This document shows positions 41,010-58,729 of a stretch of 64,000 nt of DNA, piece by piece. The DNA lies in assembly GCA_018646985.1 (NCBI GenBank), contig JABGTR010000004.1:2946-66945 (forward strand), written 5' to 3'. The stretch's first letter is position 1, and each line of letters begins with the position of its first letter. The notes under the pieces were generated by a model that was given only the letters and a program-made list of their open reading frames with translations, did no database searches and was not told where the DNA came from. This stretch comes from Minisyncoccota bacterium. GTDB taxonomy: Bacteria; Patescibacteriota; Microgenomatia; UBA1400; PJMF01. The position numbers and the translations under genes are program-made.

Positions 41010-41012
41010 TGA

Positions 41013-41576: not shown

Positions 41577-41631
41577 AAGATCATCATTCTAACATAGCCT
41601 GGATGTAGAGTTAAGTGTCTGATGATAAGTC

Positions 41632-42006: not shown

Positions 42007-42087
42007 GTTTATTGTTTCCAATGGTTGACAACTATTGTCTACAAACACTACACTTCGTAGTATTCTTAAAATTAGAAAGGGATTAGC

Positions 42088-42828
42088 ATGTCATCTGATA
42101 GATTTTTAACCAGTAACCTAGGAACCATTCTTTTAGCAATAGTTTTTTTTGTTAGTGGATTCTTTGTTGGTACTCTTTGGACAGAAAACAAAATGTTAAA
42201 GCTAGGTGGAGGCCCATCTCAAAAACAAGCTGGTCAACTAGCTGAAGCACCCACTGAAGCTCAAGCCCCAGATACTTTAAGTGAAATGCCAGAGATTTCC
42301 GATGAAGATCATATAATTGGTGCTAAAAACCCTAAAATTTACTTAGTAGAGTACTCAGACTATGAATGCCCTTTCTGTGAAAGATTTCACCCTACTACCA
42401 AGCAAATCATAGAAAAATATGGTGACGATGTGGCTCTAGTATTTCGTCACTACCCATTAGGCTTCCACCCCAATGCTCAATCAGCAGCAGAAGCTGCAGA
42501 GTGTGTTGCTAATAGAAGTGGAAATGATGCGTTTTGGAAATATACTGATGAGATATTCTCACAAAATGAACAGCTGGGAGGGAAGCTTAGTCCTGAAGCC
42601 ATCGATGCTGCCATCGCAGCTAGCGGAGCTAATACAGCTGCCGTTAAGGGATGTCTCGAAAGTGGAGAAATGACAGAAGTAGTCACTGCTCAACAAAATG
42701 GCGGAGCTGCTGCTGGAGTCTCTGGCACACCAGGAACGATTCTACTCACTGTTGATGGAGAGTCTGAACTTATTAGTGGAGCATTACCATTAGTTCAAGT
42801 AGAACAAATAATTGAGAAATATCTTTAA
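42088..42828 (+). CDS. DsbA-like thiol-disulfide oxidoreductase (thioredoxin fold, CPFC active site), membrane-anchored
   Basis: 246 aa; N-terminal TM helix; YSDYECPFCERFH active site. Confidence 0.8.
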   Translation: MSSDRFLTSNLGTILLAIVFFVSGFFVGTLWTENKMLKLGGGPSQKQAGQLAEAPTEAQAPDTLSEMPEISDEDHIIGAKNPKIYLVEYSDYECPFCERFHPTTKQIIEKYGDDVALVFRHYPLGFHPNAQSAAEAAECVANRSGNDAFWKYTDEIFSQNEQLGGKLSPEAIDAAIAASGANTAAVKGCLESGEMTEVVTAQQNGGAAAGVSGTPGTILLTVDGESELISGALPLVQVEQIIEKYL

Positions 42829-42834
42829 TACCTA

Positions 42835-43584
42835 ATGGGACATAGCATCTTCGATGGTTCTCAAGTTAATTTCCTAATTGCTTTTTTAGCTGGAATTACA
42901 ACTTTCTTTGCTAGCTGTTTACTACCATTAGTCCCAACTTATCTAGCTTATTTGTCTGGAATAACTCTTAATGATGAACACGCCAGTCAAAAAAAGTGGC
43001 AGGGATTCAAAACCGGCCTCATGTTTGTGATTGGTTTCATTATTACTTTCATGATTCTTGGGTTGACTGCAAACAAATTTGCGAGTGTTCTTCATCCCTA
43101 TAGACAATTCATTGAAAAAGTAGCTGGAGTTTTATTTATTGCCTTAGGTTTCTTTATGATGGGAATATTTAAAAATAATCTCCTATCACGAGAGAAGAGA
43201 TTTAATGTTCAGGGAAAATTTAAAAAACATCGTTCTCTACATGCTATCTTGACAGGGATTGCCTTTGGTTTTGGTTGGACACCATGCATAGGACCAGTCT
43301 TAGCAGTGATTCTATTTTGGGCAGCTCAAGCAGATTCTGCTTTAAAAGGAACTATGCTACTCACTTCGTATGGAGTTGGGTTGGGAGTTCCCTTTCTGAT
43401 CATTGCGCTGGGATTTGAAAAAATAATTCCTTGGATTAAAAAACATCACCAAATTTCTCGAATCACCAGTTTCATCTCTGGATTGTTTATCTTAATTACT
43501 GGAATTTTACTATTTACAGATCAGCTTCAGGCACTATCCTTCTATTTGCTAAATTTCTTTAATCTAAGTGCATTATCTACCTAA
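42835..43584 (+). CDS. ccdA: cytochrome c-type biogenesis/thiol-disulfide transporter CcdA (DsbD transmembrane-domain family)
   Basis: 249 aa; 6 TM helices with conserved Cys in TM1 (FFASCLLPL) and TM4 (WTPCIGP). Confidence 0.8.
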   Translation: MGHSIFDGSQVNFLIAFLAGITTFFASCLLPLVPTYLAYLSGITLNDEHASQKKWQGFKTGLMFVIGFIITFMILGLTANKFASVLHPYRQFIEKVAGVLFIALGFFMMGIFKNNLLSREKRFNVQGKFKKHRSLHAILTGIAFGFGWTPCIGPVLAVILFWAAQADSALKGTMLLTSYGVGLGVPFLIIALGFEKIIPWIKKHHQISRITSFISGLFILITGILLFTDQLQALSFYLLNFFNLSALST

Positions 43585-43611
43585 TCAAACTTGGTGGTAA
43601 AATAAATCCTT

Positions 43612-44781
43612 ATGAAATGGCGCAGAGAACACACCATCATCTTCATGATTAAAATTACGGAAGTCTTAGGATTTTCATTAATTTTACCCTTTTTACCATT
43701 CTATGCTCAAAATTTAGGAGCTTCTCCAACTCAAGTAGGATTAGTGCTGGCCACTTTTTCCTTATTTCAATTTATCTCAGCGCCTATCATGGGCAAACTC
43801 AGTGACTCATATGGCCGAATACCACTACTATTACTTTCCCAGCTTTCTACATTGATCAGCTTCATTGTCTTAGGCTTTGCCAATAGCTTGTGGATGCTAT
43901 TTCTCTCCAGAATGATCGATGGTTTGCTTGGCAGCAACTACACTATTGCTCAAGCTTATTTGAGCGATATCACCCCCAAGAATGAAAGAACTAAAATATT
44001 TAGCCTCACCGGAATTGCTTTTAGTATTGGATTTTTTATTGGACCAGCTCTAGGTGGATACTTGGCTCAATTTAGCTATGCTCTACCCTCATTTTTAGCT
44101 GCTGGTATGGCTGCTATCACCATCATAACCACATATCTTTACCTACCTGAGACAGTTGATAAATCCAAAAACTTTACCTGGTCATGGAAAATATTAAAGC
44201 TTAAACAATTTAAATTACTAATGGCAAAACCAAAAATATCCCTACCTCTCTGGGAATTTTTCTCATATGTGCTGACACATGGTCTTTGGGCAAGTAGCTT
44301 TGCCCTTTATGCAGAACGTCAATTTAATTTTGGATCTCAAGATATCGGCTATATTTTTGCTATCATCGGAGCAGTAACTATTTTCATTAAAATTCTAATT
44401 CTTCCCAAGCTATTAAATATTATGGATGAGGATAAATTGAGAATCATTGGAGCCGCAACCATTATTCTTGCTCTGGGAGCCACTCCTTGGATGCAGACTA
44501 GAGCTGCTATCACCACAGCGACAATCATCTTTGCTTTTGGCGCTAGTCTACTTAGACCTAGCTTAACTTCTCACGTTTCAAATCAGGCACCCAAAGATGA
44601 ACTAGGTGAATTTATGGGAGTTAGTGATTCTCTTGGGAGTATTTCTCAGATAATTGGTCCATTATTAGGAGGATTTCTAATTCAAAACTTCTTCCCTGGA
44701 AGTTTAGGTTTAGTTGCAGCAGCGACTATGACTGTTGGGTTAATTCTAATGATCATGGATAGAAAAATCAGCCAAGATTAA
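43612..44781 (+). CDS. MFS transporter
   Basis: 389 aa; 12-TM pattern; MFS motif A-like GKLSDSYGR. Confidence 0.8.
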   Translation: MKWRREHTIIFMIKITEVLGFSLILPFLPFYAQNLGASPTQVGLVLATFSLFQFISAPIMGKLSDSYGRIPLLLLSQLSTLISFIVLGFANSLWMLFLSRMIDGLLGSNYTIAQAYLSDITPKNERTKIFSLTGIAFSIGFFIGPALGGYLAQFSYALPSFLAAGMAAITIITTYLYLPETVDKSKNFTWSWKILKLKQFKLLMAKPKISLPLWEFFSYVLTHGLWASSFALYAERQFNFGSQDIGYIFAIIGAVTIFIKILILPKLLNIMDEDKLRIIGAATIILALGATPWMQTRAAITTATIIFAFGASLLRPSLTSHVSNQAPKDELGEFMGVSDSLGSISQIIGPLLGGFLIQNFFPGSLGLVAAATMTVGLILMIMDRKISQD

Positions 44782-44788
44782 TCACCAG

Positions 44789-45667
44789 CTATATAACTAC
44801 ACTTTGATCTTCTAGCGACTTTTCTTCTTTTACCATGATGTAAACATCTTGATTATATTCACTCACACCTACCTTTTTAGCTTCACCAGCCAAAACTTTT
44901 TCCAATGGCTTGCAATGACGACATCCACCTTCGCCTTGAGGACACTTAAATCGTTCTAGTTTTCTAGCTAACTTGATTTTTTTAGCGATCGCCAAGACCT
45001 CTTCATGGGCTTCAATTAAATCTGGTAGTTTTTGTTCCACTGGTTCATCGTGCAAATCTAAGTACCAATAACTAGCCTTAGCAACCTTCCGATGCTGAGT
45101 GTTGTGAACTAGTAAATGATAGATGGGTAACTGAAGTGAACCACCTTGGTCTTCTCTTTTACTAGTTTTGAAATCAATAATGTGGACTGCGTCTTCATCT
45201 TCAAGATACTCCAGCCAATCAACCTTTCCACAAAGAATAATATTATCTTCATCAGAAATCCAATAGTGAGGCAAGTCTTCTTTAATCTTAATTGCCAAAT
45301 TATTTAAAATACCAGGATTCCTCATCACCTGACGCAACATTTTTTCACCCCGATCTTTGTACTCTCGCTCCTGCTCATCACTACTAAAGCCACCTTTCTC
45401 TCCATGGTGTTTCTGCCAAACACGATCAAACTTCTCAATTAAGGATTCTCTAAACCTATCTTTAGAAGGAATAACTGACAAAGACTCAAGCACTTCATGG
45501 ACTGCACCACCAAGAGCTAGTGGAGCACTCATGAGCTGTATTTTTCGCCCTGTTTCTGGACTCTTATAAACATTATTTAAATAATAAGCCCGAGGACATT
45601 TCAAGAAATCTCCAATCGAACTATGTGAAACCCAGGTAGCGGTAAATTTATCAGGCATAAAACTCAT
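44789..45667 (-). CDS. PD-(D/E)XK nuclease, Cas4/AddB-like with four-Cys (Fe-S) signature; not CRISPR-associated
   Basis: 292 aa; N-terminal Cys (KCPRAYY), D-x-K (IIDFKTSK), QxxxY (QLPIYHLL), C-terminal C-x6-C-x2-C (CPQGEGGCRHC). Confidence 0.6.
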   Translation of the reverse strand: MSFMPDKFTATWVSHSSIGDFLKCPRAYYLNNVYKSPETGRKIQLMSAPLALGGAVHEVLESLSVIPSKDRFRESLIEKFDRVWQKHHGEKGGFSSDEQEREYKDRGEKMLRQVMRNPGILNNLAIKIKEDLPHYWISDEDNIILCGKVDWLEYLEDEDAVHIIDFKTSKREDQGGSLQLPIYHLLVHNTQHRKVAKASYWYLDLHDEPVEQKLPDLIEAHEEVLAIAKKIKLARKLERFKCPQGEGGCRHCKPLEKVLAGEAKKVGVSEYNQDVYIMVKEEKSLEDQSVVI

Positions 45668-45704
45668 TCTAAAACAAAGTTGAAGTTTTCTCTATAATAC
45701 TTTA

Positions 45705-47291
45705 GTGATTAAAAGAATTATTTTCAAAAATCGTTTTCAAATTTTTCTACTAATAATCATTGTAATTGGCCTTTGGCTAAGGTTCTACAACCTACCCAAT
45801 CAGGTGTGGAGTCAAGCTGGTTATGATGAGGCTAGAGATATGCTGGTAGCCGAGCATATTTACAAATACAAAGAAACAGTTAATAGAGGACCCTTAGCTG
45901 CTGGTGGCCTTAACTATCTTATGAATTCACCAGTTTACTACTATTTAGTCACATTTTTATGGATGATTACACAAAATCCGACTTCCATGATGTACCTCTG
46001 GGCAAGTTTATTAACTACACAAATTCCATTAGCCTACTTAGTGGGGAAACAACTAGGTGATAAAACTACTGGAATTATTGCTGCTATAGTTTTTGCGCTC
46101 CACAACCAACTGATCTTCCAAAGCAGAGAAGTATGGCAACCGAACTTACTTCCCATATTCTCACTACTGTTTCTATGGGTTTTATTAAAAAACCAGAAAA
46201 AGAAAAGCCTTGCTCTTCTTTTACTAATGATTTTTTTATTATTATTCCCGCTGCATCTTCACTATGGAGTATTCCTAATATTACCAGTGGGAGTCTTTTG
46301 GGTTTCTTATTTTTGGAGTCAAATTTTAGAAAATAATCTTTCACTTAAAAATATTTTTTTACCCGTTGCAACCACAGTCGGACTAATTTTTTCATGGCTA
46401 ATTACTACTTATAAGGTTAAGATTTTTGATCAGATTTTTTTCTTGTTAATAATTCTTAAAGGATCAGACACTTCATTCTTTAACAAATCTCATGAATTAA
46501 TATCAAAACTAAAACATATGCTTTGGGCAGATACGCCATCATATTTAGCAGTTTTAATAACTTTTATTTTAATCACTTTTTCATTTTTTTGTAAAAAAGA
46601 ACGCTCACGGTCAAAAAAAACTAACTGGATTATTATCAGCCTAGCTTTTTCAGCTCTAATAGGAGGACTATTCCCAAAAGAAATTCTTACAAGCTACTTT
46701 TTTAGCACCCTGCCATTCTTTTTAATTCTATTCTCATTAGGCATAAGACAACTAATTTCTATTAATAACTATTTAGGATTAGTTGTCGTAAGTGTCATCC
46801 TATTTCTAATTTATCTTCCAACTCAAAATTTGATATTTTTTCAAACTCCATCCGAATCATTTTTAGAACAAAACTATAAAGTAGCTGAGGTAATATTTAG
46901 TGATCAAAAAAATATGAATCATGAGGGAAAATACTCAATTAATTTTGGAATAGTAGCACTTTCCACCACAGTTTTTCAGCACTTTGATGGTTGGGGCACT
47001 AGTGGAGTTTGGTTTTATTTAGAAGAACTATTTGACAAGCCATTGGTTAAACTAACTAATTATGGAGTTAGTCATTATCCAATCACAACGGACATCAACT
47101 ACTTATATTTTGTTTGTGATCATAGAACACTACCAGAGCTTATTAATGAGAGCTGCTTAAATAGATTTGTTGAAGACAGAAATTATCTCAGTGACTATCC
47201 AGATAAAATTTATCAATCACAAAACTACACTGTTTGGAAAGCAGCAGTTGACTCAAAAAAACATCAGGGAAGCTACTATCATGTTCACTAA
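45705..47291 (+). CDS. GT-C glycosyltransferase, ArnT/PMT (GT39/GT83)-like
   Basis: 528 aa polytopic membrane protein; N-terminal LWLRFYNL...GYDEAR motif typical of dolichyl-phosphate-mannose / undecaprenyl-phosphate sugar transferases. Confidence 0.65.
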   Translation: MIKRIIFKNRFQIFLLIIIVIGLWLRFYNLPNQVWSQAGYDEARDMLVAEHIYKYKETVNRGPLAAGGLNYLMNSPVYYYLVTFLWMITQNPTSMMYLWASLLTTQIPLAYLVGKQLGDKTTGIIAAIVFALHNQLIFQSREVWQPNLLPIFSLLFLWVLLKNQKKKSLALLLLMIFLLLFPLHLHYGVFLILPVGVFWVSYFWSQILENNLSLKNIFLPVATTVGLIFSWLITTYKVKIFDQIFFLLIILKGSDTSFFNKSHELISKLKHMLWADTPSYLAVLITFILITFSFFCKKERSRSKKTNWIIISLAFSALIGGLFPKEILTSYFFSTLPFFLILFSLGIRQLISINNYLGLVVVSVILFLIYLPTQNLIFFQTPSESFLEQNYKVAEVIFSDQKNMNHEGKYSINFGIVALSTTVFQHFDGWGTSGVWFYLEELFDKPLVKLTNYGVSHYPITTDINYLYFVCDHRTLPELINESCLNRFVEDRNYLSDYPDKIYQSQNYTVWKAAVDSKKHQGSYYHVH

Positions 47292-49120
47292 ATTAGAGAT
47301 CTAACTTTCTCCACAATAGCTGCGGCATCTATTTTTTCAAGAGCTAATAATTCTGCTGGCTGGCCACTCCGTGGCTGCTGATCGACATATAGTGAGTGAA
47401 CAGGTGTGTTTTGATTGACCAAAGCAGCTTTCACGGCTTCTCCAATACCACCAAATTGATAGTGATCTTCGGCAGTAACAAGAGCCTTTGTTTCTTGAGC
47501 TGATTTCATTAGAGTCTCAATATCTAAAGGCTTAATGCTATAGAGATCAATTACTCTAATATTAATCTTATTTTTGCGTAATTGACGATAGGCCTTCATC
47601 GCTTCATGTAATGTAATCCCAGCAGCTATTACCGTAGCCACATCTTTTTTTGACTGATAAATAACTTTACTACCACCTATTTTAAATTCTTCATCTAGTT
47701 TATAAATAATTGGCGTATCTATCCTGGTGGTTCTTAAATATGAGATACCTTTATGATTTGTCATCTGCTGGACTAGTTTTTCAGTAGAAACTGCATCGCT
47801 AGGATACAGCACTACACTGTCACGAATTGATCTGAACATTGATATATCTTCCAACCCCATCTGAGATGGACCATCCTGACCAATTGATACCCCTGCATGA
47901 GAGCCAATAAGTTTAATATTAGCTTTCGAGTATTGAGCCATTCTGATTTGATCAAAAGCACGAGTTAGAAAAGAAGCAAAGGTAGAGATAAAGGGAATTT
48001 TTCCCATTCTCGACAAACCAACTGCGACGCTGATCATATTCTGCTCAGCAATGAACATCTCAAAAAAACGATCTGGGAAAGCTGCAGCAAAAATATTAGC
48101 AAAAGTAGAGTTACCCATCTCTGCATCTAAAACCACTATTTTTTGATTCTTTGCACCTAGTTTAGTAATGGCATTTCCATAAGCTTTGCGAGTTGCTAAG
48201 TGCTTTTTGACTGGCTTAGCTAAAAATTTATCTAGCTTAATCTCATTGCTCTGACTCTTTTTAAGCCCTATCTCTTTAGGCAGTAAAATATTCTCTTTCA
48301 AGCTCACATTGACATCCCCTAGCTCAATCAAGGCTTTCTGAAGATGATCTTGGCTCAAAGCTTTACCATGCCAGTTGTCTTGATCTTCTAAAAAAGAGAG
48401 ACCTTTTCCTTTTATAGTTTTGGCGATGATCATCACCGGCACATCTTTAACTAGACTAGCTTTTTGATAAGCCTTGGCAACCTCAGTCAAGTTGTGTCCA
48501 TCAATTACAATCGTCTCCCAACCAAAGGCCCGAGCTTTATAAGCATAGTCACTCACATCATGACCCGTCATCGTCTCACCTCTTTGTCCCAAGCGATTCA
48601 CATCAATAATGCCAACTAAATTATTTAGCTTGTAGTAACTAGCTAGCTGCATTGCCTCCCAAACTTGACCCTCAGCCATCTCACTATCACCCAACAAAAC
48701 ATAAGTTTTATAAGTTGAGCTATCTAGATATTTAGCATTTATGGCCAAGCCCACCCCCACTGACAAACCCTGTCCTAAAGAACCAGTAGCTACTTCCGTA
48801 TAAGGAAAACGAATACTGGGATGACCTTCTAAGGGACTATCTATGTGGCGCAATGTTTTGAGATCTGCTTCAGTTAGTTTCCCAGCTACTGCATAAAGTG
48901 AATAAAAAAGAGGAGCAGCGTGACCCTTGGAAAAAATTACCCGATCATTGTCGGGGTGATCTGGATTCTTTAGATCATATTTAAGAAAACCACCAAAATA
49001 TAAGACTGTCATTAACTCTACTGCCGATAAAGATGAAGTTAAATGACCAGAGCCGGCAGCTGAGGTAGATACCAAACAATAGTAACGAAGTAACTTAGCA
49101 ATCTCAGGCAGATGATCCAT
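47288..49120 (-). CDS. tkt: transketolase
   Basis: 610 aa; TPP-binding N-terminal motif (GSGHLTSSLSAVEL...GHA) and GDSEMAEG; single-polypeptide form. Confidence 0.9.
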   Translation of the reverse strand: MDHLPEIAKLLRYYCLVSTSAAGSGHLTSSLSAVELMTVLYFGGFLKYDLKNPDHPDNDRVIFSKGHAAPLFYSLYAVAGKLTEADLKTLRHIDSPLEGHPSIRFPYTEVATGSLGQGLSVGVGLAINAKYLDSSTYKTYVLLGDSEMAEGQVWEAMQLASYYKLNNLVGIIDVNRLGQRGETMTGHDVSDYAYKARAFGWETIVIDGHNLTEVAKAYQKASLVKDVPVMIIAKTIKGKGLSFLEDQDNWHGKALSQDHLQKALIELGDVNVSLKENILLPKEIGLKKSQSNEIKLDKFLAKPVKKHLATRKAYGNAITKLGAKNQKIVVLDAEMGNSTFANIFAAAFPDRFFEMFIAEQNMISVAVGLSRMGKIPFISTFASFLTRAFDQIRMAQYSKANIKLIGSHAGVSIGQDGPSQMGLEDISMFRSIRDSVVLYPSDAVSTEKLVQQMTNHKGISYLRTTRIDTPIIYKLDEEFKIGGSKVIYQSKKDVATVIAAGITLHEAMKAYRQLRKNKINIRVIDLYSIKPLDIETLMKSAQETKALVTAEDHYQFGGIGEAVKAALVNQNTPVHSLYVDQQPRSGQPAELLALEKIDAAAIVEKVRSLI

Positions 49121-49133
49121 ATTATCAATTGTA

Positions 49134-50240
49134 CTAAACTAGTTGTTCCCAAGGAAACTCTGCTTTGCCGAAATGACCGTAGGCAGCAGTAGGTAGGTAA
49201 ATTGGTCGATGCAAATCAAAGGCTTTGATAATTCCCTTTACCGAGGTGTCTAAAATATCATCTACAAAAACCTCCAGCACTTTCTCATCAACTTTAGCAG
49301 TTCCAAAAGTATTTATAGTTTTCATCACTGGGTGAGACTGACCAATGCAGTAGGCTAATCCAATCTCAACCTGGTCAGCTAAGCCTTTGTTAATTAAATT
49401 TTTAGCAATATAACGAGCGCCGTAAGCTCCAGATCGATCAACTTTAGTTGCATCTTTACCAGAGAAGGCACCGCCTCCAACACGAGCATAACCTCCATAA
49501 CCATCGACGATGATCTTGCGTCCAGTCATACCTGTATCACTAGCTGGACCACCAATGTGCCACACTCCAGTGCCGTTAACTATCAACTGATTTAATTTGA
49601 GATCAAGTCTATACTCTGCTAAAACTGGCAATACTACCTGATCGTACAAATCTTTTTTTACCTGCTTTAATGGAATATCCTCGTCGTGGGGAACTGCTAA
49701 AACTACAGTTTCCACTCCAACTGGCTGACCATTTTCATACTTCACTGTGACTTGAGTTTTTCCATCTGGACGCAAGTAATCAAGAGTCTTATCTTCACGA
49801 GCTTGGTCTATTTTCTGGGCTAATTTATGAGCGAGAGTGATTGGCAAAGGCATTAATTCCGGAGTTTCTGTAGAAGCATAACCAAACATCATTCCCTGAT
49901 CACCAGCACCATCATTATCTACGCCAGTGGAAATCTCTGGAGATTGCTGATGAATATAGGTGGAAATAGGAGAGCGGTGAGTAAAATCAAACTTATCATC
50001 TATGTAACCCATCTTCTTTATTTGATCACGAGCAATTTGCTCATAATCTACCTGAGCTGAGGTGGTTACTTCGCCTGCTAGAACTACTCTGTCAGTGGTG
50101 ACTAAAGTCTCAACTGCAACTCGACTGAATTTGTCCTGCGTCAAGACTGCATCTAAGATTGCATCTGAAATTTGATCAGCAATTTTATCAGGATGACCTG
50201 CGCAAACTGACTCGGAAGTGAAATAGGTTATTAAAGACAT
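49134..50240 (-). CDS. metK: S-adenosylmethionine synthetase
   Basis: MetK signatures GHPDK and GGGAFSGKD. The ORF extends to a GTG at 50273, but that extension overlaps the riboswitch; the ATG at 50240, preceded by GGGGAG, is the likely start. Confidence 0.93.
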   Translation of the reverse strand: MSLITYFTSESVCAGHPDKIADQISDAILDAVLTQDKFSRVAVETLVTTDRVVLAGEVTTSAQVDYEQIARDQIKKMGYIDDKFDFTHRSPISTYIHQQSPEISTGVDNDGAGDQGMMFGYASTETPELMPLPITLAHKLAQKIDQAREDKTLDYLRPDGKTQVTVKYENGQPVGVETVVLAVPHDEDIPLKQVKKDLYDQVVLPVLAEYRLDLKLNQLIVNGTGVWHIGGPASDTGMTGRKIIVDGYGGYARVGGGAFSGKDATKVDRSGAYGARYIAKNLINKGLADQVEIGLAYCIGQSHPVMKTINTFGTAKVDEKVLEVFVDDILDTSVKGIIKAFDLHRPIYLPTAAYGHFGKAEFPWEQLV

Positions 50241-50246
50241 GAGCAT

Positions 50247-50341
50247 CTCCCCTTTCTGGGCCGGAATTAGCACCTATCAATTTAAAATTGGTGGTTGCTG
50301 AATGGGTTAACAAGCCGGATCTCTACCCATCACTCTTGATG
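50247..50341 (-). promoter_or_regulatory. SAM-I (S-box) riboswitch in the metK leader
   Basis: Minus strand reads CAUCAAGAGUGAUGGGUAGAGAUCCGGCUUGUUAACCCAUUCAGCAACC...GGUGCUAAUUCCGGCCCAGAAAGGGGAGAUG. This matches the SAM-I consensus blocks (UCAAGAG-GG-GGAGGGA-GGCCCGAUGAAACCC-GGCAACC ... GGUGCCAAUUCC...AGA). The 3' P1 strand overlaps the metK Shine-Dalgarno sequence. Confidence 0.8.
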
Positions 50342-50349
50342 TTATTTAG

Positions 50350-50379
50350 ATTATAGAACATTTTGGGGTAGAAAGACAA
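50350..50379 (-). promoter_or_regulatory. candidate promoter for the metK riboswitch transcript (-35 TTGTCT, 18-nt spacer, -10 TATAAT)
   Basis: Minus strand TTGTCT-N18-TATAAT immediately upstream of the riboswitch P1; overlaps the 3' end of the upstream gene. Confidence 0.4.
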
Positions 50380-50387
50380 GAAAAAGA

Positions 50388-51593
50388 CTAAGCTTGGCCC
50401 ATGCCACGGAGCTTTAGAATGAACTTGTCTAAAGTAAATGGTGAAGAAATAGCAATTAGCTCAAAGGTAAAAATCGATAACTCAAAGGCAGAGGGGATTA
50501 AGTTGGTGATAAAAAATGCTCCCAATCCAATTAGAGTGGCATTAAATAAGTTAGATTTAAACATTTCTGCTTGAGTCATCTCAATCACCTCCTCAGAAAT
50601 ACCTTTTTCTTGGGCTAACTTGCCTTGCCTCAAGATATCTTGCAGACCAAACCAGATCACCATTATGAATGTAGCAATCGCCGTCACCGTATTTAGAGTT
50701 CGATTAGGAATACTGACATCCCCAGAAAAAATCCTAAACTCCCAAGCTAGGGGGAAGTTTCTCACCACAATATAAGCTACCACAAATAAAATTATGGTTG
50801 AGCTCCCTAAAAATCCCATTGTCTGCTTAGCTTTTTGTTGAGATTCAAGTTGTGGTTTGGTCTCTGCGACTACTTTCTGCTCAGGCTCCTCGCCCTCTGA
50901 ATCCTCTGCCGATGAAGTTTTTTTTGTATTCAACATAAATCTATGTTTCATTCTTTTAGCTAGATAGATAAAAACATGTGAAAGTAAAATTAAAATCCAG
51001 GCCCAGAAAACAATCCATAGTCCAAAATCCTTAGATCTGGTTACTATCGGATAAGGAATCTTGAACCATAAACCCTGGAGGGGATAAACTGGATAAGGAA
51101 TAAATTTTAATAAAATACTGGGATCAATTTTGTTGGCATAAAAATCTGTCAAAAATAATCGCCCAATCGAGATAAATAGAGTTATCTGGATCATAAAATC
51201 AACTACATAGAACAAGAAGGTCATATTGCCTTGTCTAAAATTCTTCTTAACTCTAGCTATTTGCTGATCTTCTAGTTTCAATTCATCGATTTTATCCTGA
51301 AATTTCTGCGTATTATGTGACTGCATGACTCTAATGGCACGAAATGGGACCATCAATAAAGTTTGAGTAACTCCCAACAAAACTACTGACACCCAAATTT
51401 GCTTCGTCAAAGCATAGAAACCAAATAAAATATTAGCGTAAAAATTAAAAGTCCATCCTTTGAAAAAAGCATAAACTAAAAAAACAACAATCACTGCAAC
51501 CAAGCCACTCATAACTGGTAACAACACACCAGAAGAACTAATCTTAGTATCCTTAACTAATGATGGTGAAACTTGATTGTCAGCCATAACCAT
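50388..51593 (-). CDS. membrane protein, putative YidC/Oxa1-family insertase with C-terminal extension
   Basis: 401 aa; first TM followed by a basic/coiled region (RVMQSHNTQKFQDKIDELKLEDQQIARVKKNFRQGNM) resembling YidC (SKAMQALQPEMQKLKEKY...); multiple further TM helices. Confidence 0.4.
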   Translation of the reverse strand: MVMADNQVSPSLVKDTKISSSGVLLPVMSGLVAVIVVFLVYAFFKGWTFNFYANILFGFYALTKQIWVSVVLLGVTQTLLMVPFRAIRVMQSHNTQKFQDKIDELKLEDQQIARVKKNFRQGNMTFLFYVVDFMIQITLFISIGRLFLTDFYANKIDPSILLKFIPYPVYPLQGLWFKIPYPIVTRSKDFGLWIVFWAWILILLSHVFIYLAKRMKHRFMLNTKKTSSAEDSEGEEPEQKVVAETKPQLESQQKAKQTMGFLGSSTIILFVVAYIVVRNFPLAWEFRIFSGDVSIPNRTLNTVTAIATFIMVIWFGLQDILRQGKLAQEKGISEEVIEMTQAEMFKSNLFNATLIGLGAFFITNLIPSAFELSIFTFELIAISSPFTLDKFILKLRGMGQA

Positions 51594-51654
51594 TGATTAT
51601 ACATGCCAAGCAACTTAATTTTAAGATCGTTAAATTCAGGTTATAATTAACTTC

Positions 51655-52731
51655 ATGAAATCAGATCTTACTAATCAAACTAATTTTTGGTCAAAACTTG
51701 AAAAACCTTTTATTGGGCTGGCTCCTATGGATGGAGTTGGAGATCATCCTTATCGATATATTCAAAAAAAATATGGACAGCCAGACATCATCTACACCGA
51801 ATTTGCGACTGTAGAGGGTTTTTGCAGAGGAGTAACGGTGCCGCTACGAGATTTTATCTTTGATAAAACCCAGCGACCCATCATTGCTCAAATATATGGT
51901 AAAACTCCTCAATTTTTTAGAGAAACTGCGACTGTAGTTTGTCAGCTCGGATTTGATGGAATAGATATCAATATGGGCTGTCCGGCTAAAAGTGTGGCTA
52001 ATGGTGGTGCTGGAGCAGGTTTAATAAATACTCCAAAATTAGCTCAAGAGATTATTGAAGCCACTCAAGCTGGTGTCCAAGATTGGGTAAATGGCAAAAC
52101 AGCCACAGATTGTGAGCATATTACTCCTGAAATAGCTAAAGAAGTAGAAAAAAGAAGCCTAAATCTGTCTGAAGAATATCAGCAACATCAGAGTATCCCG
52201 GTCAGTGTGAAAACTAGGATTGGTTTTGATAGCCCAATTATTGATCAATGGCTACCAATACTGCTGGAAACTAAACCTGCAGCGATAGCCATCCATGGGC
52301 GAACTCTGCGCCAAGGCTATAGTGGTAAAGCCGACTGGAATGAAATCGGCAAAGCAGTTCGAATAGCTAAAGATAGCTCGACTTTAATTATTGGCAATGG
52401 CGATGTTTCATCTAAAGCGGAGGCTCTAGAAAAAGTAAATCAATCTGGAGTAGATGGGGTGCTAATCGGCAGAGCTAGTTTTGGTAATCCCTGGGCATTT
52501 AATGATGAAGATGCAAGCATCAACCAAAAAGCTGCAGTTGCTCTAGAACATGCTCAGCTATATGAAAAAACATTTAATGAAGATGAAAAGTATTCTTTTT
52601 TACCAATGAGAAAACATCTAAGTTGGTACATCAAGAGTTTCGAGAAAGCTAAAGAAGTCAGAAAACAATTAGTGCTAACCAATAATAGCCAAGAAGTTAA
52701 AGAGATATTTGATAAATACGAATTACTTTGA
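51655..52731 (+). CDS. tRNA-dihydrouridine synthase
   Basis: 358 aa; [15 protein letters not shown] start and TIM-barrel FMN-binding pattern of the Dus family. Confidence 0.85.
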
Positions 52732-53349
52732 GTTCTTTTTTTGTAGCCACTTAACTCCCAATGAAGTAATGGGTGTCCCAAAAGCAGCAAAAGCAAATTT
52801 TAACAACCAATATGGCCAAACTAGAGATAAGATGAACCAAAAATTGCCAGGCTGATAAAAAGCTAAAAACATAAAAACGGTTGTATCTAGCAGCAGGCCA
52901 AATAGGTTTGAGAGATTGTTTCTTACCCAAAACTTATGATGTTTGAATTTTTCTTTTAGTTTTGAAAAAACATAGACATCTAGTCTTTCTGCTGTCCAAA
53001 AGGCGAACAAACTAGCTACAGTAATTCGAAGGGATTTAGAAAAAATTAAATTATAAGCATCGTTGGTAGTTAGAAATCTATCTGCAGGAGGCAATACTAA
53101 GGCAAGAATGTTAAATGCTACTAAGAAGAATAAGATATGGAGACCACTGCGCACAAAACTAAGGGCTCTTTTTTTGCCATAAACTTCGAAGATGATGTCG
53201 TTGATGCTAAATGTCAGGGGTAAAACAAAAATAGCTACCGAGGCATTGACTCCCCCCACAGCAAATATTTTGCTGCCCATCAGCTCTGCAGCCACAATCG
53301 CTGCAATATATAGCGCATGTAAAAAATCCATCTTTTGAACCTCAGTCAT
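52723..53349 (-). CDS. queuosine-precursor transporter YhhQ (DUF165/VUT family)
   Basis: 208 aa; 6 TM helices; conserved PLTFSINDIIFEVYGKK block. Confidence 0.7.
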   Translation of the reverse strand: MTEVQKMDFLHALYIAAIVAAELMGSKIFAVGGVNASVAIFVLPLTFSINDIIFEVYGKKRALSFVRSGLHILFFLVAFNILALVLPPADRFLTTNDAYNLIFSKSLRITVASLFAFWTAERLDVYVFSKLKEKFKHHKFWVRNNLSNLFGLLLDTTVFMFLAFYQPGNFWFILSLVWPYWLLKFAFAAFGTPITSLGVKWLQKKNSK

Positions 53350-53474
53350 ATTTGAAAAATTGTAACACAGTGACTTAATCTATAAATTATGCATCAAAAT
53401 AGGCATTGCTATTCTTATATTATTTAGTTAATATTTAGTCTAGTTAGAATCATCTGCCACACAAAGTTTGCTTT

Positions 53475-54713
53475 ATGGCATTAGCAACTGAAAAAAAATC
53501 GACGAATCCTCTATTAATTCCCAACACTTTTAGACTTTATAGACCCATCCTATCTCATTCTCTAAAAGAACACTTCTCTTCATTTAGTCTTTCTCTAAGA
53601 GACTTTTCCAGCTTAATGCCACTACTAATCTCTGATTATGCTCCGAATGTAGCAATACCATGGTTGCTAAATGGTGATAATTGGGAAGATGCGATAGTAG
53701 ATATGTTCAAGATCCATGCTTTAACTCAGAACAGTGACCCAGCTGGGCCTAATGTGATGAACGTAACAGCCTTATCTGTATTTATGGATTGGAGACAGGA
53801 TTCAAGAACTCGAAAACCTATTCATGGTAGGGAAGGCGAGGTGGCTATTGTTCAAGGGCAAGCTAGTTTTTCAAAAGCTATGGCTACTTTAATGAAACAT
53901 ACGGCTGGAATAAATAATTTTGTTAATTTAGACGCCCATAGTCATACGGCATTAGATCAATTCAGAGCTGAAGGAATTGATACTATGAATCTAACGGCAG
54001 CTTTTCTCATGGCTGATGAGATAAAAAAACTAAATTTAATTAGAAGTGATCTGGATACAATGATATGTGGAATAGATGCCGGTAATTTACCTTTAGTGAA
54101 AGCACTTAGTCAATACCTCGATCTACCGATTGCTATTATCCGTAAGTGGAGAGAATCAATCATGGGAGGTGTTCAAAGTAAAACTCACCATGAATTAATT
54201 TTTGGGAATGTTAGAGGAAAAAGAATAATTTTAGTTGATGACATGATTAGTAGTGGTGGCACAATTAAAAAAACTGTAGATGAACTACTTAAAAATGGAG
54301 CTAAAGAGATTATTATCTGTGCAACTCATGCTGTATTATCTGGTAACGACTATTACAAGAATATTCAAGAAGTCTTAGAGCTTGAAGAAGTAAGGTTGGT
54401 AATGACTACCAATACCATACCATTAGAAAGACCGAATGGAAGAGAAAAAGATAGGCCTTTCATTCTTAAAGAAGATGGTGAGAAGAAAAAATTAGAAATA
54501 CTAGATATAGATAATTTTATTATTTGGACATTAGGAATACTACTGAATAGTAAAAATTTTGATGAAGCTAAGCAAAAGCTAAAACCACATACGCTGCAAT
54601 TAGAAGATCCAGCTATAATATATGAAGAAATCACTGGACAAAAAATGCCTAAACCAAAAGAAACAGCGATTTACAGAAAAGGTGGTGAATTACATCCTCT
54701 GCCACAAAAATGA
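53475..54713 (+). CDS. prs: ribose-phosphate pyrophosphokinase (PRPP synthetase), divergent N-terminus and C-terminal extension
   Basis: 412 aa; RQDSR (RQDRK-like) motif; PRPP-binding loop GKRIILVDDMISSGGTI; LPIAIIRKWR matches Prs APIAIIDKRR. Confidence 0.6.
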   Translation: MALATEKKSTNPLLIPNTFRLYRPILSHSLKEHFSSFSLSLRDFSSLMPLLISDYAPNVAIPWLLNGDNWEDAIVDMFKIHALTQNSDPAGPNVMNVTALSVFMDWRQDSRTRKPIHGREGEVAIVQGQASFSKAMATLMKHTAGINNFVNLDAHSHTALDQFRAEGIDTMNLTAAFLMADEIKKLNLIRSDLDTMICGIDAGNLPLVKALSQYLDLPIAIIRKWRESIMGGVQSKTHHELIFGNVRGKRIILVDDMISSGGTIKKTVDELLKNGAKEIIICATHAVLSGNDYYKNIQEVLELEEVRLVMTTNTIPLERPNGREKDRPFILKEDGEKKKLEILDIDNFIIWTLGILLNSKNFDEAKQKLKPHTLQLEDPAIIYEEITGQKMPKPKETAIYRKGGELHPLPQK

Positions 54714-55789
54714 AAAAAATATTCACCGACAAAAAGGTTTCTCTAATCGTGGCTGGTGTATTAGTCATCACCATCGCTGCCACGGTGACTTTTTTTGTTT
54801 CTCAGCAAAAAGAAACAGCTGCTGATCCTGAAAACTTCCCTGAGGTTCTCTCAGCTCAAACAGAGGTTGATATCTCCGAAGTACCTGCTGAAGAACTTAA
54901 AACATTAACCGTACTCCTCCTAGGTTACGGCGGTGCTGGTCACCAAGGTGGATTCCTAACAGACGTCATTCAGCTAGCTCACATCGATTTCGAAAAATCT
55001 CAGATTAATCTCATTTCTGTACCCCGCGATCTGTGGGTCAAACTTCCCAACAACAAACAAGCCAAAATCAACACTGCTTTTACCTTAGGAGCAGATCCAA
55101 ATAAACCCATCACTAGTGGTGGACAAGTCGCTAAACAAATGGCTACTGCCGTGACTGGACTCCAAATTGATTACTTCATGGCGGTTGATTTCGTCGGCTT
55201 CAAGCGCCTCATAGGTCAAGAACTAGATGGAATTGAAGTTAATGTCCCTGAAACACTCGATGATTCTTGGTACCCAATCAAGGGCGAAGAACTAAACCCA
55301 TGTGGCATGACTCCTGAGGAAGTTGCTGAAGTAACCGCCAGCTACTCCGGATTTAATCTTGAAAAACAGTTTGAGTGCCGCTATGAGCACCTATACTTCC
55401 CACAGGGATTAGTAAAAATGGAAGGTGGCGACGCCCTCGGATATGTGCGCTCTCGTCATGGATCCGCTGGTGGAGATTTTTCTCGCAGCCAACGTCAACA
55501 TGCGTTACTCAAAGCCATTGGGAATAAACTTTGGTCAATTGAAGCGCTTGAAAATGCACCAGATTTTTTCAAAAAAACAATCAAGCACTTTACGACTGAT
55601 ATCAATTTGGAAATTGTTAAATATTTAGTGCCAGCCTTAAAAACTACCAAAAACTTTGAAGTCAAAAGCGTCGTCCTCAGCACAAAAAATGTCTTTATCA
55701 CCTCCAAATCTTCAGCGGGTGCTTTTATTGTCATCCCAAAAACTAGCTGGCAAAGTGTTCACACCTACATCCAACAACAACTCAACTAA
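54710..55789 (+). CDS. LytR-CpsA-Psr (LCP) family cell-envelope phosphotransferase
   Basis: 359 aa; N-terminal TM helix; LCP domain blocks (LLLGYGGAG...TDVIQLAHID...ISVPRDLWV). Confidence 0.8.
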   Translation: MKKIFTDKKVSLIVAGVLVITIAATVTFFVSQQKETAADPENFPEVLSAQTEVDISEVPAEELKTLTVLLLGYGGAGHQGGFLTDVIQLAHIDFEKSQINLISVPRDLWVKLPNNKQAKINTAFTLGADPNKPITSGGQVAKQMATAVTGLQIDYFMAVDFVGFKRLIGQELDGIEVNVPETLDDSWYPIKGEELNPCGMTPEEVAEVTASYSGFNLEKQFECRYEHLYFPQGLVKMEGGDALGYVRSRHGSAGGDFSRSQRQHALLKAIGNKLWSIEALENAPDFFKKTIKHFTTDINLEIVKYLVPALKTTKNFEVKSVVLSTKNVFITSKSSAGAFIVIPKTSWQSVHTYIQQQLN

Positions 55790-55790
55790 G

Positions 55791-56801
55791 CTATTTCTTT
55801 AGTAGTTTCTCTACTAACTTCACATCGGGTTTATTACCAATAAATAGAGGAGCTCGCTGATGCAACTCAGTGGGTACTATCTCCAACACGTCTTGTTGGC
55901 CATCACTAGCATAACCACCGGCTGCCTTAATTAAAAATGCAAAGGGGATCCCTTCATAAAGCAAGCGCAGCTTCCCATTTGGATGCTTTTTGTCTGCTGG
56001 ATAAAGAAAGATTCCACCCTTCAATAAATTGCGATGAAAATCAGCCACTAACGACCCAATGTAACGAGCTGTCTTGGGCTTGCCAGAGATATCCTGATCT
56101 GTCTTCATTTGGCTAACATGATCGGCTAAAGCTTGATCCCATTTAGGTTGATAGCTTTCATTAACACTATAAATATTACTTGCCTCAGGTAAAGTCATAT
56201 CCTCATGTGAGAGCAAAAACTCACCAATGTTTGGATCAAGAGTAAAGCCATGCATTCCTTGCCCTGTAGAATAGACTAGCATGGTGCTAGAACCATAAAG
56301 TACATATCCAGCACAAACCGCATTCTTTCCTGGCTGTAAATAATCACTCTTTTCTAAATTCTGTCCAAAACTTTGCTTACGATAGATGAGAAAAATAGTT
56401 CCCACACTCACATTGACATCAATATTAGATGAACCATCTAGTGGATCCATGTGCATAATGTATTCAGCTTGATCATGATAGTCTTCATTGAAGACAATCA
56501 AGTCAGGCTCTTCTTCAGAGCCAACTGCTTTTATATACGGAGACTGCTTAAGCAATCTCACAAAAATATCATGAGCATACTCATCTAGTTTCTGGACTTC
56601 TTCATCTTGAACATTAGTTTTCCCAGCAGCTCCCAAAATATCAGTTAAGCCAGCTCGGTTAGTTTTGTGTGAAACTATCTTGGCTGAAATCATGATCTGG
56701 TTGAGAATTTCTGCTAGTTCACGGCTGCGTTGGTTAAAGACATGAGCTTTTAGCAAATGATCGGTTAAATTAGTAATCGGTGGCATAACGCTTCCTTTCA
56801 A
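55791..56801 (-). CDS. fbp: fructose-1,6-bisphosphatase class 1
   Basis: 336 aa; conserved MDPLDGSSNIDVNVSVGTIF metal-binding block. Confidence 0.88.
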   Translation of the reverse strand: MKGSVMPPITNLTDHLLKAHVFNQRSRELAEILNQIMISAKIVSHKTNRAGLTDILGAAGKTNVQDEEVQKLDEYAHDIFVRLLKQSPYIKAVGSEEEPDLIVFNEDYHDQAEYIMHMDPLDGSSNIDVNVSVGTIFLIYRKQSFGQNLEKSDYLQPGKNAVCAGYVLYGSSTMLVYSTGQGMHGFTLDPNIGEFLLSHEDMTLPEASNIYSVNESYQPKWDQALADHVSQMKTDQDISGKPKTARYIGSLVADFHRNLLKGGIFLYPADKKHPNGKLRLLYEGIPFAFLIKAAGGYASDGQQDVLEIVPTELHQRAPLFIGNKPDVKLVEKLLKK

Positions 56802-56811
56802 CTAATATTTA

Positions 56812-58197
56812 TTAATCTGCTAAACCACTCACATCATCGTCATTGGTTTTAGAAAATCCAAAATCGACTTCAGTCTTAACTGGAGCAACTGGCTTGACTA
56901 AACTATTAACTAACTCAGCTGTGTTGACCACATTCAGCTGCTCATAGAAGAAAGAGAATCTTTCCTCAAGAGACTGCCGAATCTTAGTTTTATTTTCCTC
57001 TGGCATATCCCAAGTTGCCTGCTTGAACTCTCCCCAAGCTTTTTTACGGAAACTATAGTGAAATTGCTCAACTGTTTGTTCTGGCTTGCGCTCATCACTC
57101 ATGGTTTCATCTAGCCAAGCATACATTTTGTCTCGTAACTCACTTGGGAATGCCTCATGCTCAAACTGAATATTCTGGAAACCAGTTGCTAAATGAACTT
57201 CAACTGCCTCAGACTTAGTAAATTGATTGAAGTACTCGTCTGGAAGGGTAGATGCCCCATGTTGAACACCTCCTCCCATCCCGTACTCATCTCTACTCAC
57301 TTGAGAAACATCTTTTAAAACTCCAAAATCAACACTTACGTCAGCTAAAGTACCATCTGCTAAAACTACTCCACCATGGTGAGTCCCAGTCTGGATGCTA
57401 ATTTTACTCATCCCAATCGTATCGGGAGTTAAACCAGCATTAAAGCCATCCACATAAGCTCTTAAATCCTCTAAAGTACTGTTTTTGCCACCAATGTGAC
57501 CAATCTCACCACCAAGAGAAACGGTGACTCCAGCTGGCTCTAAATCTCGAACAAATTTAGTTATCTCTAAAGAGTAATCAATGTTGGCTAGTTGTTGTTC
57601 TGCTTCGGTGGATTTATCTAAATCAACTAAAGTCGACATATCAATATCGATATTATAAAAACCACCTCTGATAGCTTCTGCAATTAAATCCTTAATAGTT
57701 TCGATCTCACCCTCCTTAGGCACACCTGGCCTAGATGCTTTAGATTGGAAGTGATCACCTTGAACAAACAATGGTCCTGACCAACCTTCTCGCAAGGCTG
57801 CAGCCATCAACACAGTGGTGTATTCTTCTGGTCGCTGATCAGTATAACCAATCTCAGATCTAGCAATTTCAAAAATTAAGGCACCTACACTGTGTTTTTT
57901 AGCAGCTGAAAAAGCAGCTCGAGCGGTATCGTAGGCCATTCCACGAATATTCATCGCTGGTACAGTCAGATCTTTGGGTACTCGGCCATCGCCTTTGGCC
58001 ATATAAAAATCATTAATTGAAGCAGGAACAATCCCCCCAGTAATTGCTTGCTGCCAAATAGAAAACCTGGCGGCTTGTTTTTGACTATCATCGCCAAAAA
58101 CTGCCTGGTAAACAAGCTCGTCCATAGGGTGACTAAAAGATGGAGTGTTCATAAATAAAATCCTTTTATTTATTACTAAGAAACTCATTATACACAA
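56812..58197 (-). CDS. class II fructose-bisphosphate aldolase family protein (long form)
   Basis: 461 aa (start may be the internal ATG near 58152); blocks PAMNIRGM (AFN-like), QGDHFQ (LDHG-like), HHGG and QHGAST (HGxSG-like) align with class II FBA/TBP aldolases. Confidence 0.6.
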   Translation of the reverse strand: MCIMSFLVINKRILFMNTPSFSHPMDELVYQAVFGDDSQKQAARFSIWQQAITGGIVPASINDFYMAKGDGRVPKDLTVPAMNIRGMAYDTARAAFSAAKKHSVGALIFEIARSEIGYTDQRPEEYTTVLMAAALREGWSGPLFVQGDHFQSKASRPGVPKEGEIETIKDLIAEAIRGGFYNIDIDMSTLVDLDKSTEAEQQLANIDYSLEITKFVRDLEPAGVTVSLGGEIGHIGGKNSTLEDLRAYVDGFNAGLTPDTIGMSKISIQTGTHHGGVVLADGTLADVSVDFGVLKDVSQVSRDEYGMGGGVQHGASTLPDEYFNQFTKSEAVEVHLATGFQNIQFEHEAFPSELRDKMYAWLDETMSDERKPEQTVEQFHYSFRKKAWGEFKQATWDMPEENKTKIRQSLEERFSFFYEQLNVVNTAELVNSLVKPVAPVKTEVDFGFSKTNDDDVSGLAD

Positions 58198-58260
58198 ACT
58201 TGATATTGAAGATGGATATAAGATATAATGAATATATATTCATAAATAATATGAAAGGAA

Positions 58261-58443
58261 ATGATTATGCCAAGATTTGATAAAACAGGACCTCAAGGAA
58301 TGGGACCTAGAACCGGCAAAGGTCTAGGACAATGTATTTCTAGCTCAAACAAAAAACAATCTCTTGCAGATCGCAAGCAAGAACTCGAAAAAGAGCTAAA
58401 TAATATTAAAAAAGAAGAAGCTGAATTAATCCAAGAAAAATAA
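58261..58443 (+). CDS. DUF5320-family small protein
   Basis: 60 aa; MPRFDKTGPQGMGPRTGKGLGQC N-terminus plus a C-terminal coiled-coil, as in DUF5320. Confidence 0.55.
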   Translation: MIMPRFDKTGPQGMGPRTGKGLGQCISSSNKKQSLADRKQELEKELNNIKKEEAELIQEK

Positions 58444-58447
58444 TTAA

Positions 58448-58723: not shown

Positions 58724-58729
58724 TTAACT

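Follow-up and report, generated by a model that had tools for sequence, protein, structure and literature searches.

How is metK, the gene for S-adenosylmethionine (SAM) synthetase, controlled in a bacterium whose metK leader has room for little besides a riboswitch aptamer? The question is raised by a 64,000-nucleotide (nt) stretch of contig JABGTR010000004.1 from a Minisyncoccota (Patescibacteria) bacterium, hereafter the window, in which metK occupies 49134..50240 on the minus strand (368 amino acids (aa) plus stop, from ATG 50240) and encodes a product with the N, M and C S-AdoMet_synt domains of Pfam (E = 1e-36 to 1e-57). A gap of 148 nt on the same strand separates metK from an upstream 401-aa open reading frame (ORF) with its stop at 50388, and in this gap a first-pass annotation, made from the letters alone, had proposed a SAM-I (S-box) riboswitch acting on translation. 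Read 5' to 3', the leader consists of TTGTCT-N18-TATAAT (50379..50350), 7-8 nt, the segment AACAUCAAGAGUGAUGGGUAGAGAUCCGGCUUGUUAACCCAUUCAGCAACC…GGUGCUAAUUCCGGCCCAGAAAGGGGAGAUGCUC and then directly the metK start, AUGUCU…. The reading that we favor, with a probability of roughly 0.68 judged from sequence, is that SAM-dependent folding of this aptamer directly occludes the metK ribosome-binding site (RBS). All window coordinates below refer to the minus strand unless marked otherwise.

The SAM-I aptamer in the metK leader

A permissive Rfam scan of 50150..50500 yields a single significant match, to SAM-I (RF00162), at 50345..50240. It covers model positions 1-108 of 108 and scores 40.0 bits, with E = 7.6e-8 in the 351-nt search, or ~1.4e-5 when scaled by 64000/351 to the whole window, and RF00162 is the best-scoring member of clan CL00012 there. 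The check proposed in the first-pass annotation thus returns a significant full-length match that nevertheless falls below the curated cut-off, the gathering score of the family being 44.4 bits. A default Rfam scan of the whole window at gathering thresholds reports nothing, the SAM-I element included; with its sub-threshold score, the element would therefore be missed by any annotation that relies on curated thresholds. The shortfall is due to the periphery of the fold and not to its core: the three outermost model pairs of helix P1 are non-canonical in the window, P4 is shortened from six inner model pairs to two or three (CCC-AGAAA-GGG), and the 3' strand of the kink-turn (K-turn) reads GUUAA where the consensus is UGAA. 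The core nucleotides around the SAM pocket are all present, comprising the A-U/U-A pairs of P1, AGAG in J1/2, GCAACC/GGUGC of P3 with its bulged A, and AAUUCC in J3/4. Across 11 clade sequences these positions are mostly invariant, and the remainder are nearly so. The characteristic sequence blocks noted in the first-pass annotation all occur on the minus strand as well.

For comparison, we obtained eleven related loci (MetK 67-88% identical) by exact-protein look-ups. The window MetK is 100% identical to a Joint Genome Institute (JGI) metagenome protein; its nearest named relatives, at 70-80% identity, are labeled 'Patescibacteria group bacterium', with Paceibacterota and Levyibacteriota further out, and the closest species-representative genome among the matches listed encodes a MetK that is 63% identical (57-63% for the relatives listed). 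Seven of the eleven loci were scanned with Rfam, and all seven leaders give full-length RF00162 matches, four above the gathering score (51.5, 46.9, 46.0 and 45.4 bits) and three below it (42.5, 40.6 and 37.0 bits). The other four, L168-L171, were matched instead with R1, a clade covariance model built from an alignment (A1) of the window and ten related leaders. R1 scores 79-121 bits on the clade leaders and 112.9 bits on the window element, which is the sole copy in the 64-kilobase window with filters off (next best E = 0.32). At E <= 0.01, Rfam calls no SAM element in ten distant loci from the 57-63% set. The element lies directly upstream of metK, on the same strand, in the window and in all 11 related loci.

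The window aptamer, bounded by its outermost P1 pair, spans 50242..50343 and is supported by the RF00162 match, by R1 and by the minimum free energy (MFE) fold. The 5' strand of P1, AACAUC (50338..50343, core CAUC at 50341..50338), pairs with the 3' strand GAUGCU (50247..50242), which holds an in-frame AUG at 50246..50244; the assignment follows from model alignment and covariation. P2 (50300..50333) comprises a closing G-C pair, P2a (GAUGGG/CCCAUU), a K-turn-like internal loop (5' UA, 3' GUUAA), P2b (GAG/CUU) and the terminal loop AUCCGG. CCGG in this loop (50315..50318) forms a pseudoknot with CCGG at 50264..50261 in J3/4 (AAUUCCGG, 50261..50268). P3 (50269..50299; AGCA-A-CC ... GG-UGCU) has the bulged A and a variable distal stem-loop and is placed by covariation, and model alignment places the vestigial P4 at 50250..50260.

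The helices are well supported by a structure-aware alignment of twelve sequences (A2), analyzed against controls in which the 3' partners were slid by 1-3 columns and against 500 column shuffles. Standard pairs fill 94.4% of the pair cells in A2, compared to 30-41% in the slid controls; 13 pairs show changes on both sides, and none of the 500 shuffles reaches the observed covariation score. All twelve sequences keep the four core P1 pairs (CAUC/GAUG), one of which is replaced in compensatory fashion (C-G by U-A) in L166, while a fifth P1 pair forms in nine and is A.C in the window. Changes on both sides occur in five of the seven P2a pairs. The six proximal pairs of P3 are invariant and all five distal pairs covary. 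All four pseudoknot pairs form in 12/12 sequences, the first being C-G in seven and U-A in five. P4, which is CCC/GGG in the window and CC/GG in the relatives, contains two invariant C-G pairs, so that covariation is neutral on this helix; the more distant relatives L081, L082 and L083 have 3 to 5 inner P4 pairs.

A K-turn with tandem sheared G.A pairs is not found. The window has 5' UA (50324..50325) and 3' GUUAA (50307..50311) in place of the consensus GA and UGAA. K-turn position 1b is A in the window, U in L161, C in L162 and G in L163, L164, L166, L169 and L171, and position 2n is U in most of the clade. Tertiary contacts in SAM-I RNAs are able to rescue weakened K-turns. Of the structure that the first-pass annotation expected, P1, P2, P3 and the pseudoknot (P2 loop with J3/4) are recovered, P4 is reduced to just 2-3 base pairs (bp), and the K-turn lacks its canonical G.A pair.

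The isolated aptamer domain has an MFE of -21.1 kcal/mol and adopts the four-way junction. Because of this fold, the covariation and the presence of the element in orthologous leaders, we file it as SAM-I despite its score, and the sequence comparisons confirm a genuine, trimmed-down SAM-I aptamer. The original identification thus stands on the full-length RF00162 match, on the occurrence of the element in every orthologous leader examined and on covariation of P1, P2, P3 and the pseudoknot. The two outcomes named at the outset as grounds for abandoning it, a lack of any significant RF00162 match and helices unable to form, did not occur.

Start codon, promoter and proposed occlusion of the RBS

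The longest ORF call for metK takes as its start GTG 50273, in fact the GUG within GGUGCU, the conserved 3' strand of P3. Two in-frame ATGs follow, at 50246 and 50240. The protein read from ATG 50240 begins MSLITYFTSESV; its MSLITYF aligns residue for residue with MSSITHF and MFSTTHF of the relatives, and the annotated homologues are mostly 366-370 aa long. GGGGAG (50252..50247) precedes ATG 50240 by 6 nt, and the strong Shine-Dalgarno sequences (SDs) found in the window at EF-Tu, rpoB and rpoC are spaced by 5-8 nt. Alignment, length and spacing support 50240 as the metK start, as the first-pass annotation had argued on seeing that GTG 50273 lies inside the aptamer.

GGGGAG is the only SD, and it is embedded in the aptamer, extending from the 3' strand of P4 through J4/1 into the first P1 pair. 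A single nucleotide separates the last P1 pair from the AUG, which thus begins at the second nucleotide past that pair. The first-pass annotation had taken GGGGAGAUG as a whole for the 3' half of P1 with the SD in it. GAUG(CU) is indeed the P1 3' strand; GGG belongs instead to the P4 3' strand and G-A to J4/1, so the SD lies mainly in P4 and J4/1 and shares only the first pair of P1. When the aptamer fold is enforced, the SD is fully paired. A terminator scan of 48900..50700 finds nothing between the aptamer and metK, in agreement with the earlier remark that no terminator follows; the sole site, at 48955..48940, lies in the next gene. The window also lacks a ~37-nt hairpin module that most relatives carry, and has no separate anti-SD helix. 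The RBS within the aptamer, an AUG within a few nucleotides of it, and neither a terminator nor an anti-SD helix are sequence features expected of a direct-occlusion switch.

The promoter proposed upstream, TTGTCT-N18-TATAAT, is present as described. The -35-like hexamer TTGTCT (50374..50379) and the -10 hexamer TATAAT (50350..50355) together match 10 of 12 positions with an 18-nt spacer. The promoter scan finds this one site where 4.3 are expected by chance in such an AT-rich stretch, and the match alone therefore proves nothing. Its support comes from the position of the -10 box: in seven of the eleven leaders scored, a perfect TATAAT has its end exactly 8 nt upstream of the C in CAUC; the distance is 10 nt in L168, and at about the same position TTTAAT occurs in L163, L166 and L170 and TACAAT in L171. 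Conservation of the -35 hexamer is weak evidence, with an identical TTGTCT in L161, TTGCTT in L163, L166 and L170, and no match in L164 and L167. Since the distance from the -10 box to P1 is conserved, we infer a transcription start at ~50343; the predicted interval, 50342..50344, lies ~7 nt downstream of the -10 box and coincides with the first P1 pair or precedes it by 1-2 nt. The outer three pairs of the Rfam P1 would then probably lie outside the RNA, which would account for their mismatches.

Under the mechanism that we propose, the riboswitch would make up practically the entire metK 5' untranslated region (UTR) of ~103 nt, with transcription starting at the first P1 nucleotide. At high SAM, the ligand would bind the four-way junction and lock P1, J4/1 and the short P4. 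The locked elements would hold the sole SD, GGGGAG, and abut the start codon, so that the 30S subunit is excluded and less SAM synthetase is made. At low SAM, a P1 of 4-5 bp and a P4 of 2-3 bp would be too weak to stay closed, the purine tract would be exposed and metK would be translated. The net logic would be negative feedback by direct occlusion, dispensing with a separate expression platform. Translational control by SD sequestration, as the first-pass annotation suggested, is thus the best reading of the leader; SAM binding and the translational output are both inferred.

Several observations weigh against direct occlusion, beginning with the Rfam score itself, which at 40.0 bits lies under the gathering score. 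With 30 nt of coding sequence added, the leader has an MFE structure (-28.4 kcal/mol) other than the aptamer, and even in the unconstrained ensemble the SD is mostly paired, with a probability of 0.32 of being unpaired. The fold of the 122-nt leader has a z-score of 0.42, and its MFE structure is again not the aptamer. Folding gives no clear two-state picture and no convincing ligand-free state; ON and OFF are not separated, so the calculations do not count as support. In the SAM-I RNAs studied, P4 forms regardless of ligand, and some of the SD may therefore be paired whether or not SAM is bound. The aptamer has four secure P1 pairs, two or three P4 pairs and an A.A in place of the K-turn G.A, and with P1 and P4 so short and the K-turn pair so altered, its affinity for SAM could be poor. 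The transcription start is placed by spacing only. Finally, just 13 of the 52 ATG-start ORFs in the window have even a 4-nt SD-like match 3-12 nt upstream, which makes the dependence of initiation on an SD in this organism uncertain.

The window genes offer a further observation on initiation. Many carry a -10-like hexamer (TATAAT, TACAAT, TAGAAT or TATACT) that ends 6-9 nt before the ATG, as at 51655 (+), 49120 (-), 60944 (-), 53349 (-), 17725 (-), 41576 (-) and 26103 (-). This arrangement suggests that leaderless mRNAs are widespread among them.

Two alternative pairings of the leader were also considered. A 5' hairpin between CAUC of the P1 5' strand and GAUG of the P2 5' strand, as an 'anti-P1' element, was dropped; the complementarity is not kept in L169. 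The P2 5' strand AGUGAUGGGU (50326..50334) is complementary to metK codons 5-8, AACCUAUUUCAC (50217..50228). The duplex, at -8.9 to -11.4 kcal/mol, ranks in the top 2-4% of same-gene control windows in L161, L162 and the window itself. L163, L164, L167 and L170 have a weaker form of it, and L165, L166, L168, L169 and L171 lack it. It may represent an alternative fold of the ligand-free leader, or simply follow from conservation of the Thr-His-Phe codons.

Two leader designs among relatives, and the alternatives

The related leaders fall into two designs. In the hairpin type (L163-L167, L169, L170 and L171), P1 is followed by ~10 nt, (G)CCUCUC, an AU-rich loop, GAGAGG or GGGAGG, three or four residues, mostly U (UUUU, in L171 UUA), and then the AUG, so that a hairpin with a folding energy of -12 to -14 kcal/mol buries the SD. 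These leaders also repeat the SD, as GAGAGG, in the P4 loop and 3' strand. In folds of the nascent RNA that stop at the anti-SD, CCUCUC pairs with the P4 tract in five of seven cases, at the cost of P1 and P4. In folding terms, hairpin-type leaders are thus conventional strand-exchange switches: the P4 tract would take up the anti-SD and free the SD when SAM is absent, whereas bound SAM would lock P1 and P4 and leave the anti-SD to pair with the SD. The folds show the P4/J4-1 purine tract as a functional partner in SD control, which supports direct occlusion through the same tract in the window. We also considered these hairpins as intrinsic terminators, given their UUUU-AUG-UUUU tail; the scan calls none and the SD lies inside the hairpin, and we read them as sequestrators.

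In the compact type, found in the window, L161, L162, P0004 (read from the translation of a run-through ORF) and L168, the ~37-nt module is absent and the sole SD lies at P4/J4-1, as GGGGAG in the window and AAAGGA in L161, L162 and L168. GGGGAG of the window occupies the place of the GAGAGG tract of the hairpin type. In a neighbor-joining tree of MetK (no bootstrap), the window, L161, L162 and P0004 form a clade nested among hairpin types, L168 branches apart, and the outgroup clade (L169, L171) is of the hairpin type. Because of this nesting and the outgroup state, we read the compact form as derived, and the simplest reading of the tree is an ancestral hairpin design from which the compact form arose by a ~37-nt deletion, possibly twice. 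A more specific proposal, which we hold only tentatively and would put just short of an even bet, is that the window records a recent conversion from strand exchange to platform-less direct occlusion, in which the deletion took the anti-SD, the loop and the SD, and the decoy tract became the SD. If that is true, few complete SAM-I switches would be smaller than this ~103-nt, all-aptamer 5' UTR, and it would be a regulatory RNA native to a Patescibacteria genome.

The aptamer may instead bind SAM but act at a step other than, or additional to, access of the 30S subunit, by affecting mRNA stability or Rho-dependent termination of untranslated metK mRNA. We consider this unlikely. The aptamer lies at the predicted 5' end, where it could block 5'-end-dependent decay or expose a cleavage site, and folding gives no clean difference in SD accessibility. 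Direct-occlusion switches often change RBS access only modestly and may rely on Rho or decay (PMC10907184), and the study of the Xanthomonas SAM-I switch was unable to exclude effects of Rho or RNases (PMC7270179). No rut-like or RNase site was identified, however, and effects on decay or Rho would supplement occlusion and not replace it. Since the relatives clearly use an SD/anti-SD hairpin as their platform, the evidence from this lineage favors control at translation.

Loss of the hairpin could also have removed the output altogether, leaving a decaying relic whose aptamer is only a constitutive structured leader. The sub-threshold score, the vestigial P4, the degenerate K-turn and the missing platform are all what such a relic would show, and the strengthening of the SD from AGGAUAG (L161, L162) to GGGGAG in the window could reflect selection for constitutive expression. 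The pattern of divergence argues otherwise. Within the compact clade, aptamers differ at 5-9% of positions compared to 44-49% at four-fold degenerate sites of metK, a gap that indicates strong purifying selection on the aptamer after loss of the platform. Where the window departs from L161/L162, it does so in loops, the K-turn bulge and P4/J4-1, with the conserved core unaffected; all core consensus blocks and the pseudoknot are intact, and the compact form recurs in the separately branching L168. A relic is accordingly an improbable account of the leader, and direct occlusion by a maintained aptamer remains the reading that we prefer.

It is more doubtful still that translation begins at AUG 50246, within the P1 3' strand, with the start codon itself sequestered. 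This AUG is in frame with metK and fully paired once the aptamer forms, and its equivalent is the annotated metK start in L168. It lies 0 nt from GGGGAG, in contrast to the 5-8 nt of the strong SDs in the window, and it is the N-terminus from 50240 that aligns residue by residue with the relatives. In the hairpin-type L163 and L167, early stops follow the P1 AUG, and as a start codon it is therefore not conserved. We dropped a conserved role for the P1 AUG, whether as mini-ORF or as start, on the same grounds: it opens a mini-ORF of 2-3 codons in L163 and L167, is in frame in L166 and is an annotated start only in L168. In L166 (2452-2503) no stop separates it from metK, and a 16-codon N-terminal extension is possible there.

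A classical S-box transcription attenuator as in Firmicutes, although it is the commonest SAM-I mechanism and at least one more distant relative has a GC-rich hairpin and seven consecutive U after its aptamer, is effectively refuted for the window by its sequence, with no terminator-like site between aptamer and metK, one nucleotide only between the last P1 pair and the AUG, and no terminator-like call even for the relatives' hairpins.

That distant relative, L001 (127-415; the closest species-representative relative among the matches listed, MetK 63%, labeled 'uncultured Gammaproteobacteria'), has a SAM-I element with a large P3 insertion, which Rfam misses at E <= 0.01 and R1 matches in part only. 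The terminator, GCCAC…GGUGGC plus seven U, lies ~130 nt before metK. Because this aptamer is followed by what reads as a classical terminator, a third platform type exists among the relatives, as judged from sequence.

The neighborhood adds a few observations. The 401-aa ORF upstream (50388..51593) matches no Pfam family at threshold, its sole match being ACR_tran at 14.5 bits; it ends 9 nt before the -35 box with no terminator after it, and it keeps its place next to metK in L161-L168. In L164 (~2150-2340) and L165 (~1910-2090), the interval that separates the riboswitch from the upstream gene holds an inserted small ORF, which is missing from the gene call list. It comes with a GGAGG SD of its own (MSKFYPRKHSSAWRTCNCLV…, with a hydrophobic tail), and a strong terminator, CCCCCGG…CCGGGGG plus a U-run, lies beyond it. 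Across 1..64000, the window gives zero Rfam families at gathering score, tRNAs and ribosomal-protein leaders included; it carries ribosomal-protein, rpoBC and EF-Tu/EF-G operons.

Significance and comparison with known systems

The window riboswitch and three of the seven Rfam-scanned relatives score below the gathering threshold, so default pipelines under-count riboswitches in Patescibacteria; the clade model recovers them. In the titles and abstracts of the open-access literature, we found no native riboswitch from Patescibacteria or the Candidate Phyla Radiation, only synthetic ones used as tools. The predicted SAM feedback on metK would be a function kept under strong purifying selection in an ultrasmall, host-dependent lineage. 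Close relatives bear hairpin (strand-exchange) and platform-less versions of one aptamer, a natural matched pair that bears on how a four-way-junction aptamer could gate an RBS directly.

Compared to SAM-I/S-box riboswitches (RF00162; B. subtilis yitJ, T. tengcongensis metF), the window element shares the P1-P4 four-way junction, the pseudoknot between the P2 loop and J3/4, the conserved AUCAAGAG, GCAACC, GGUGCUAAUUCC and AGAU blocks, and a position upstream of a SAM-cycle gene. It differs in its P1 of 4-5 bp at the 5' end of the transcript, its P4 of 2-3 bp, the A for G at K-turn position 1b, the lack of a terminator/antiterminator platform and the location of the SD within the aptamer. SAM-IV and SAM-I/IV, also in clan CL00012, likewise have a SAM-I-like binding core and a junction P4 that is reduced or missing. 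In these two classes, P4 lies 3' of P1, and the fold has an extra pseudoknot. The window element, by contrast, keeps a short hairpin between J3/4 and P1, and RF00162 is its best clan match.

SMK boxes (SAM-III) also control metK. The logic proposed for the window, in which the SD is part of a SAM-stabilized fold, is the same as in SAM-III, SAM-II/V and SAM-SAH (PMC10907184), whose folds are unrelated to that of SAM-I, being H-type pseudoknots or a three-way junction. A 2024 review assigns SAM-II/V, SAM-III, SAM-SAH and preQ1 to 'direct occlusion', a heading under which SAM-I is not treated; the mechanism has been studied in detail mainly in these other classes, mostly pseudoknot aptamers (PMC10907184). 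In most direct-occlusion SAM RNAs the ligand contacts the RBS (PMC10907184), whereas the SD of the window lies in P4 and J4/1.

As Tang et al. remarked in 2020, every SAM-I switch characterized functionally until then used a terminator; their work showed experimentally that SAM-I(Xcc) from Xanthomonas campestris acts mainly on translation (PMC7270179). The window element resembles SAM-I(Xcc) in having a SAM-I aptamer and no intrinsic terminator, SAM-responsive repression of translation being only predicted for the window. SAM-I(Xcc) is ~200 nt long, has P5-P7 hairpins with anti-SD and anti-AUG segments and senses uncharged initiator tRNA, whereas the window has no platform; the hairpin-type relatives (L163-L167, L169-L171) are nearer to its logic than the window is.

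The closest precedent is the bioinformatic description by Barrick and Breaker in 2007 of direct RBS sequestration inside the conserved SAM-I aptamer (PMC2258182). Their design and that of the window have in common an RBS sequestered in the aptamer with no separate platform. There, the RBS lies in the 3' side of P1, whereas in the window it lies one element further in, from the first P1 pair across J4/1 into the 3' strand of P4, and P1 is abutted by the start codon instead of the SD. The host of the window also belongs to a Patescibacteria lineage that was absent from the 2007 sample. The contrast with attenuation in Firmicutes drawn in the first-pass annotation is real, although already known from that survey. 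Because direct RBS sequestration in SAM-I had been described there, the compact design belongs to a known category, predicted earlier and rarely studied, and is not a new mechanism. The find is solid but ordinary and of modest interest; it leaves current understanding in place and adds to it an under-sampled phylum and a natural series of platform variants.

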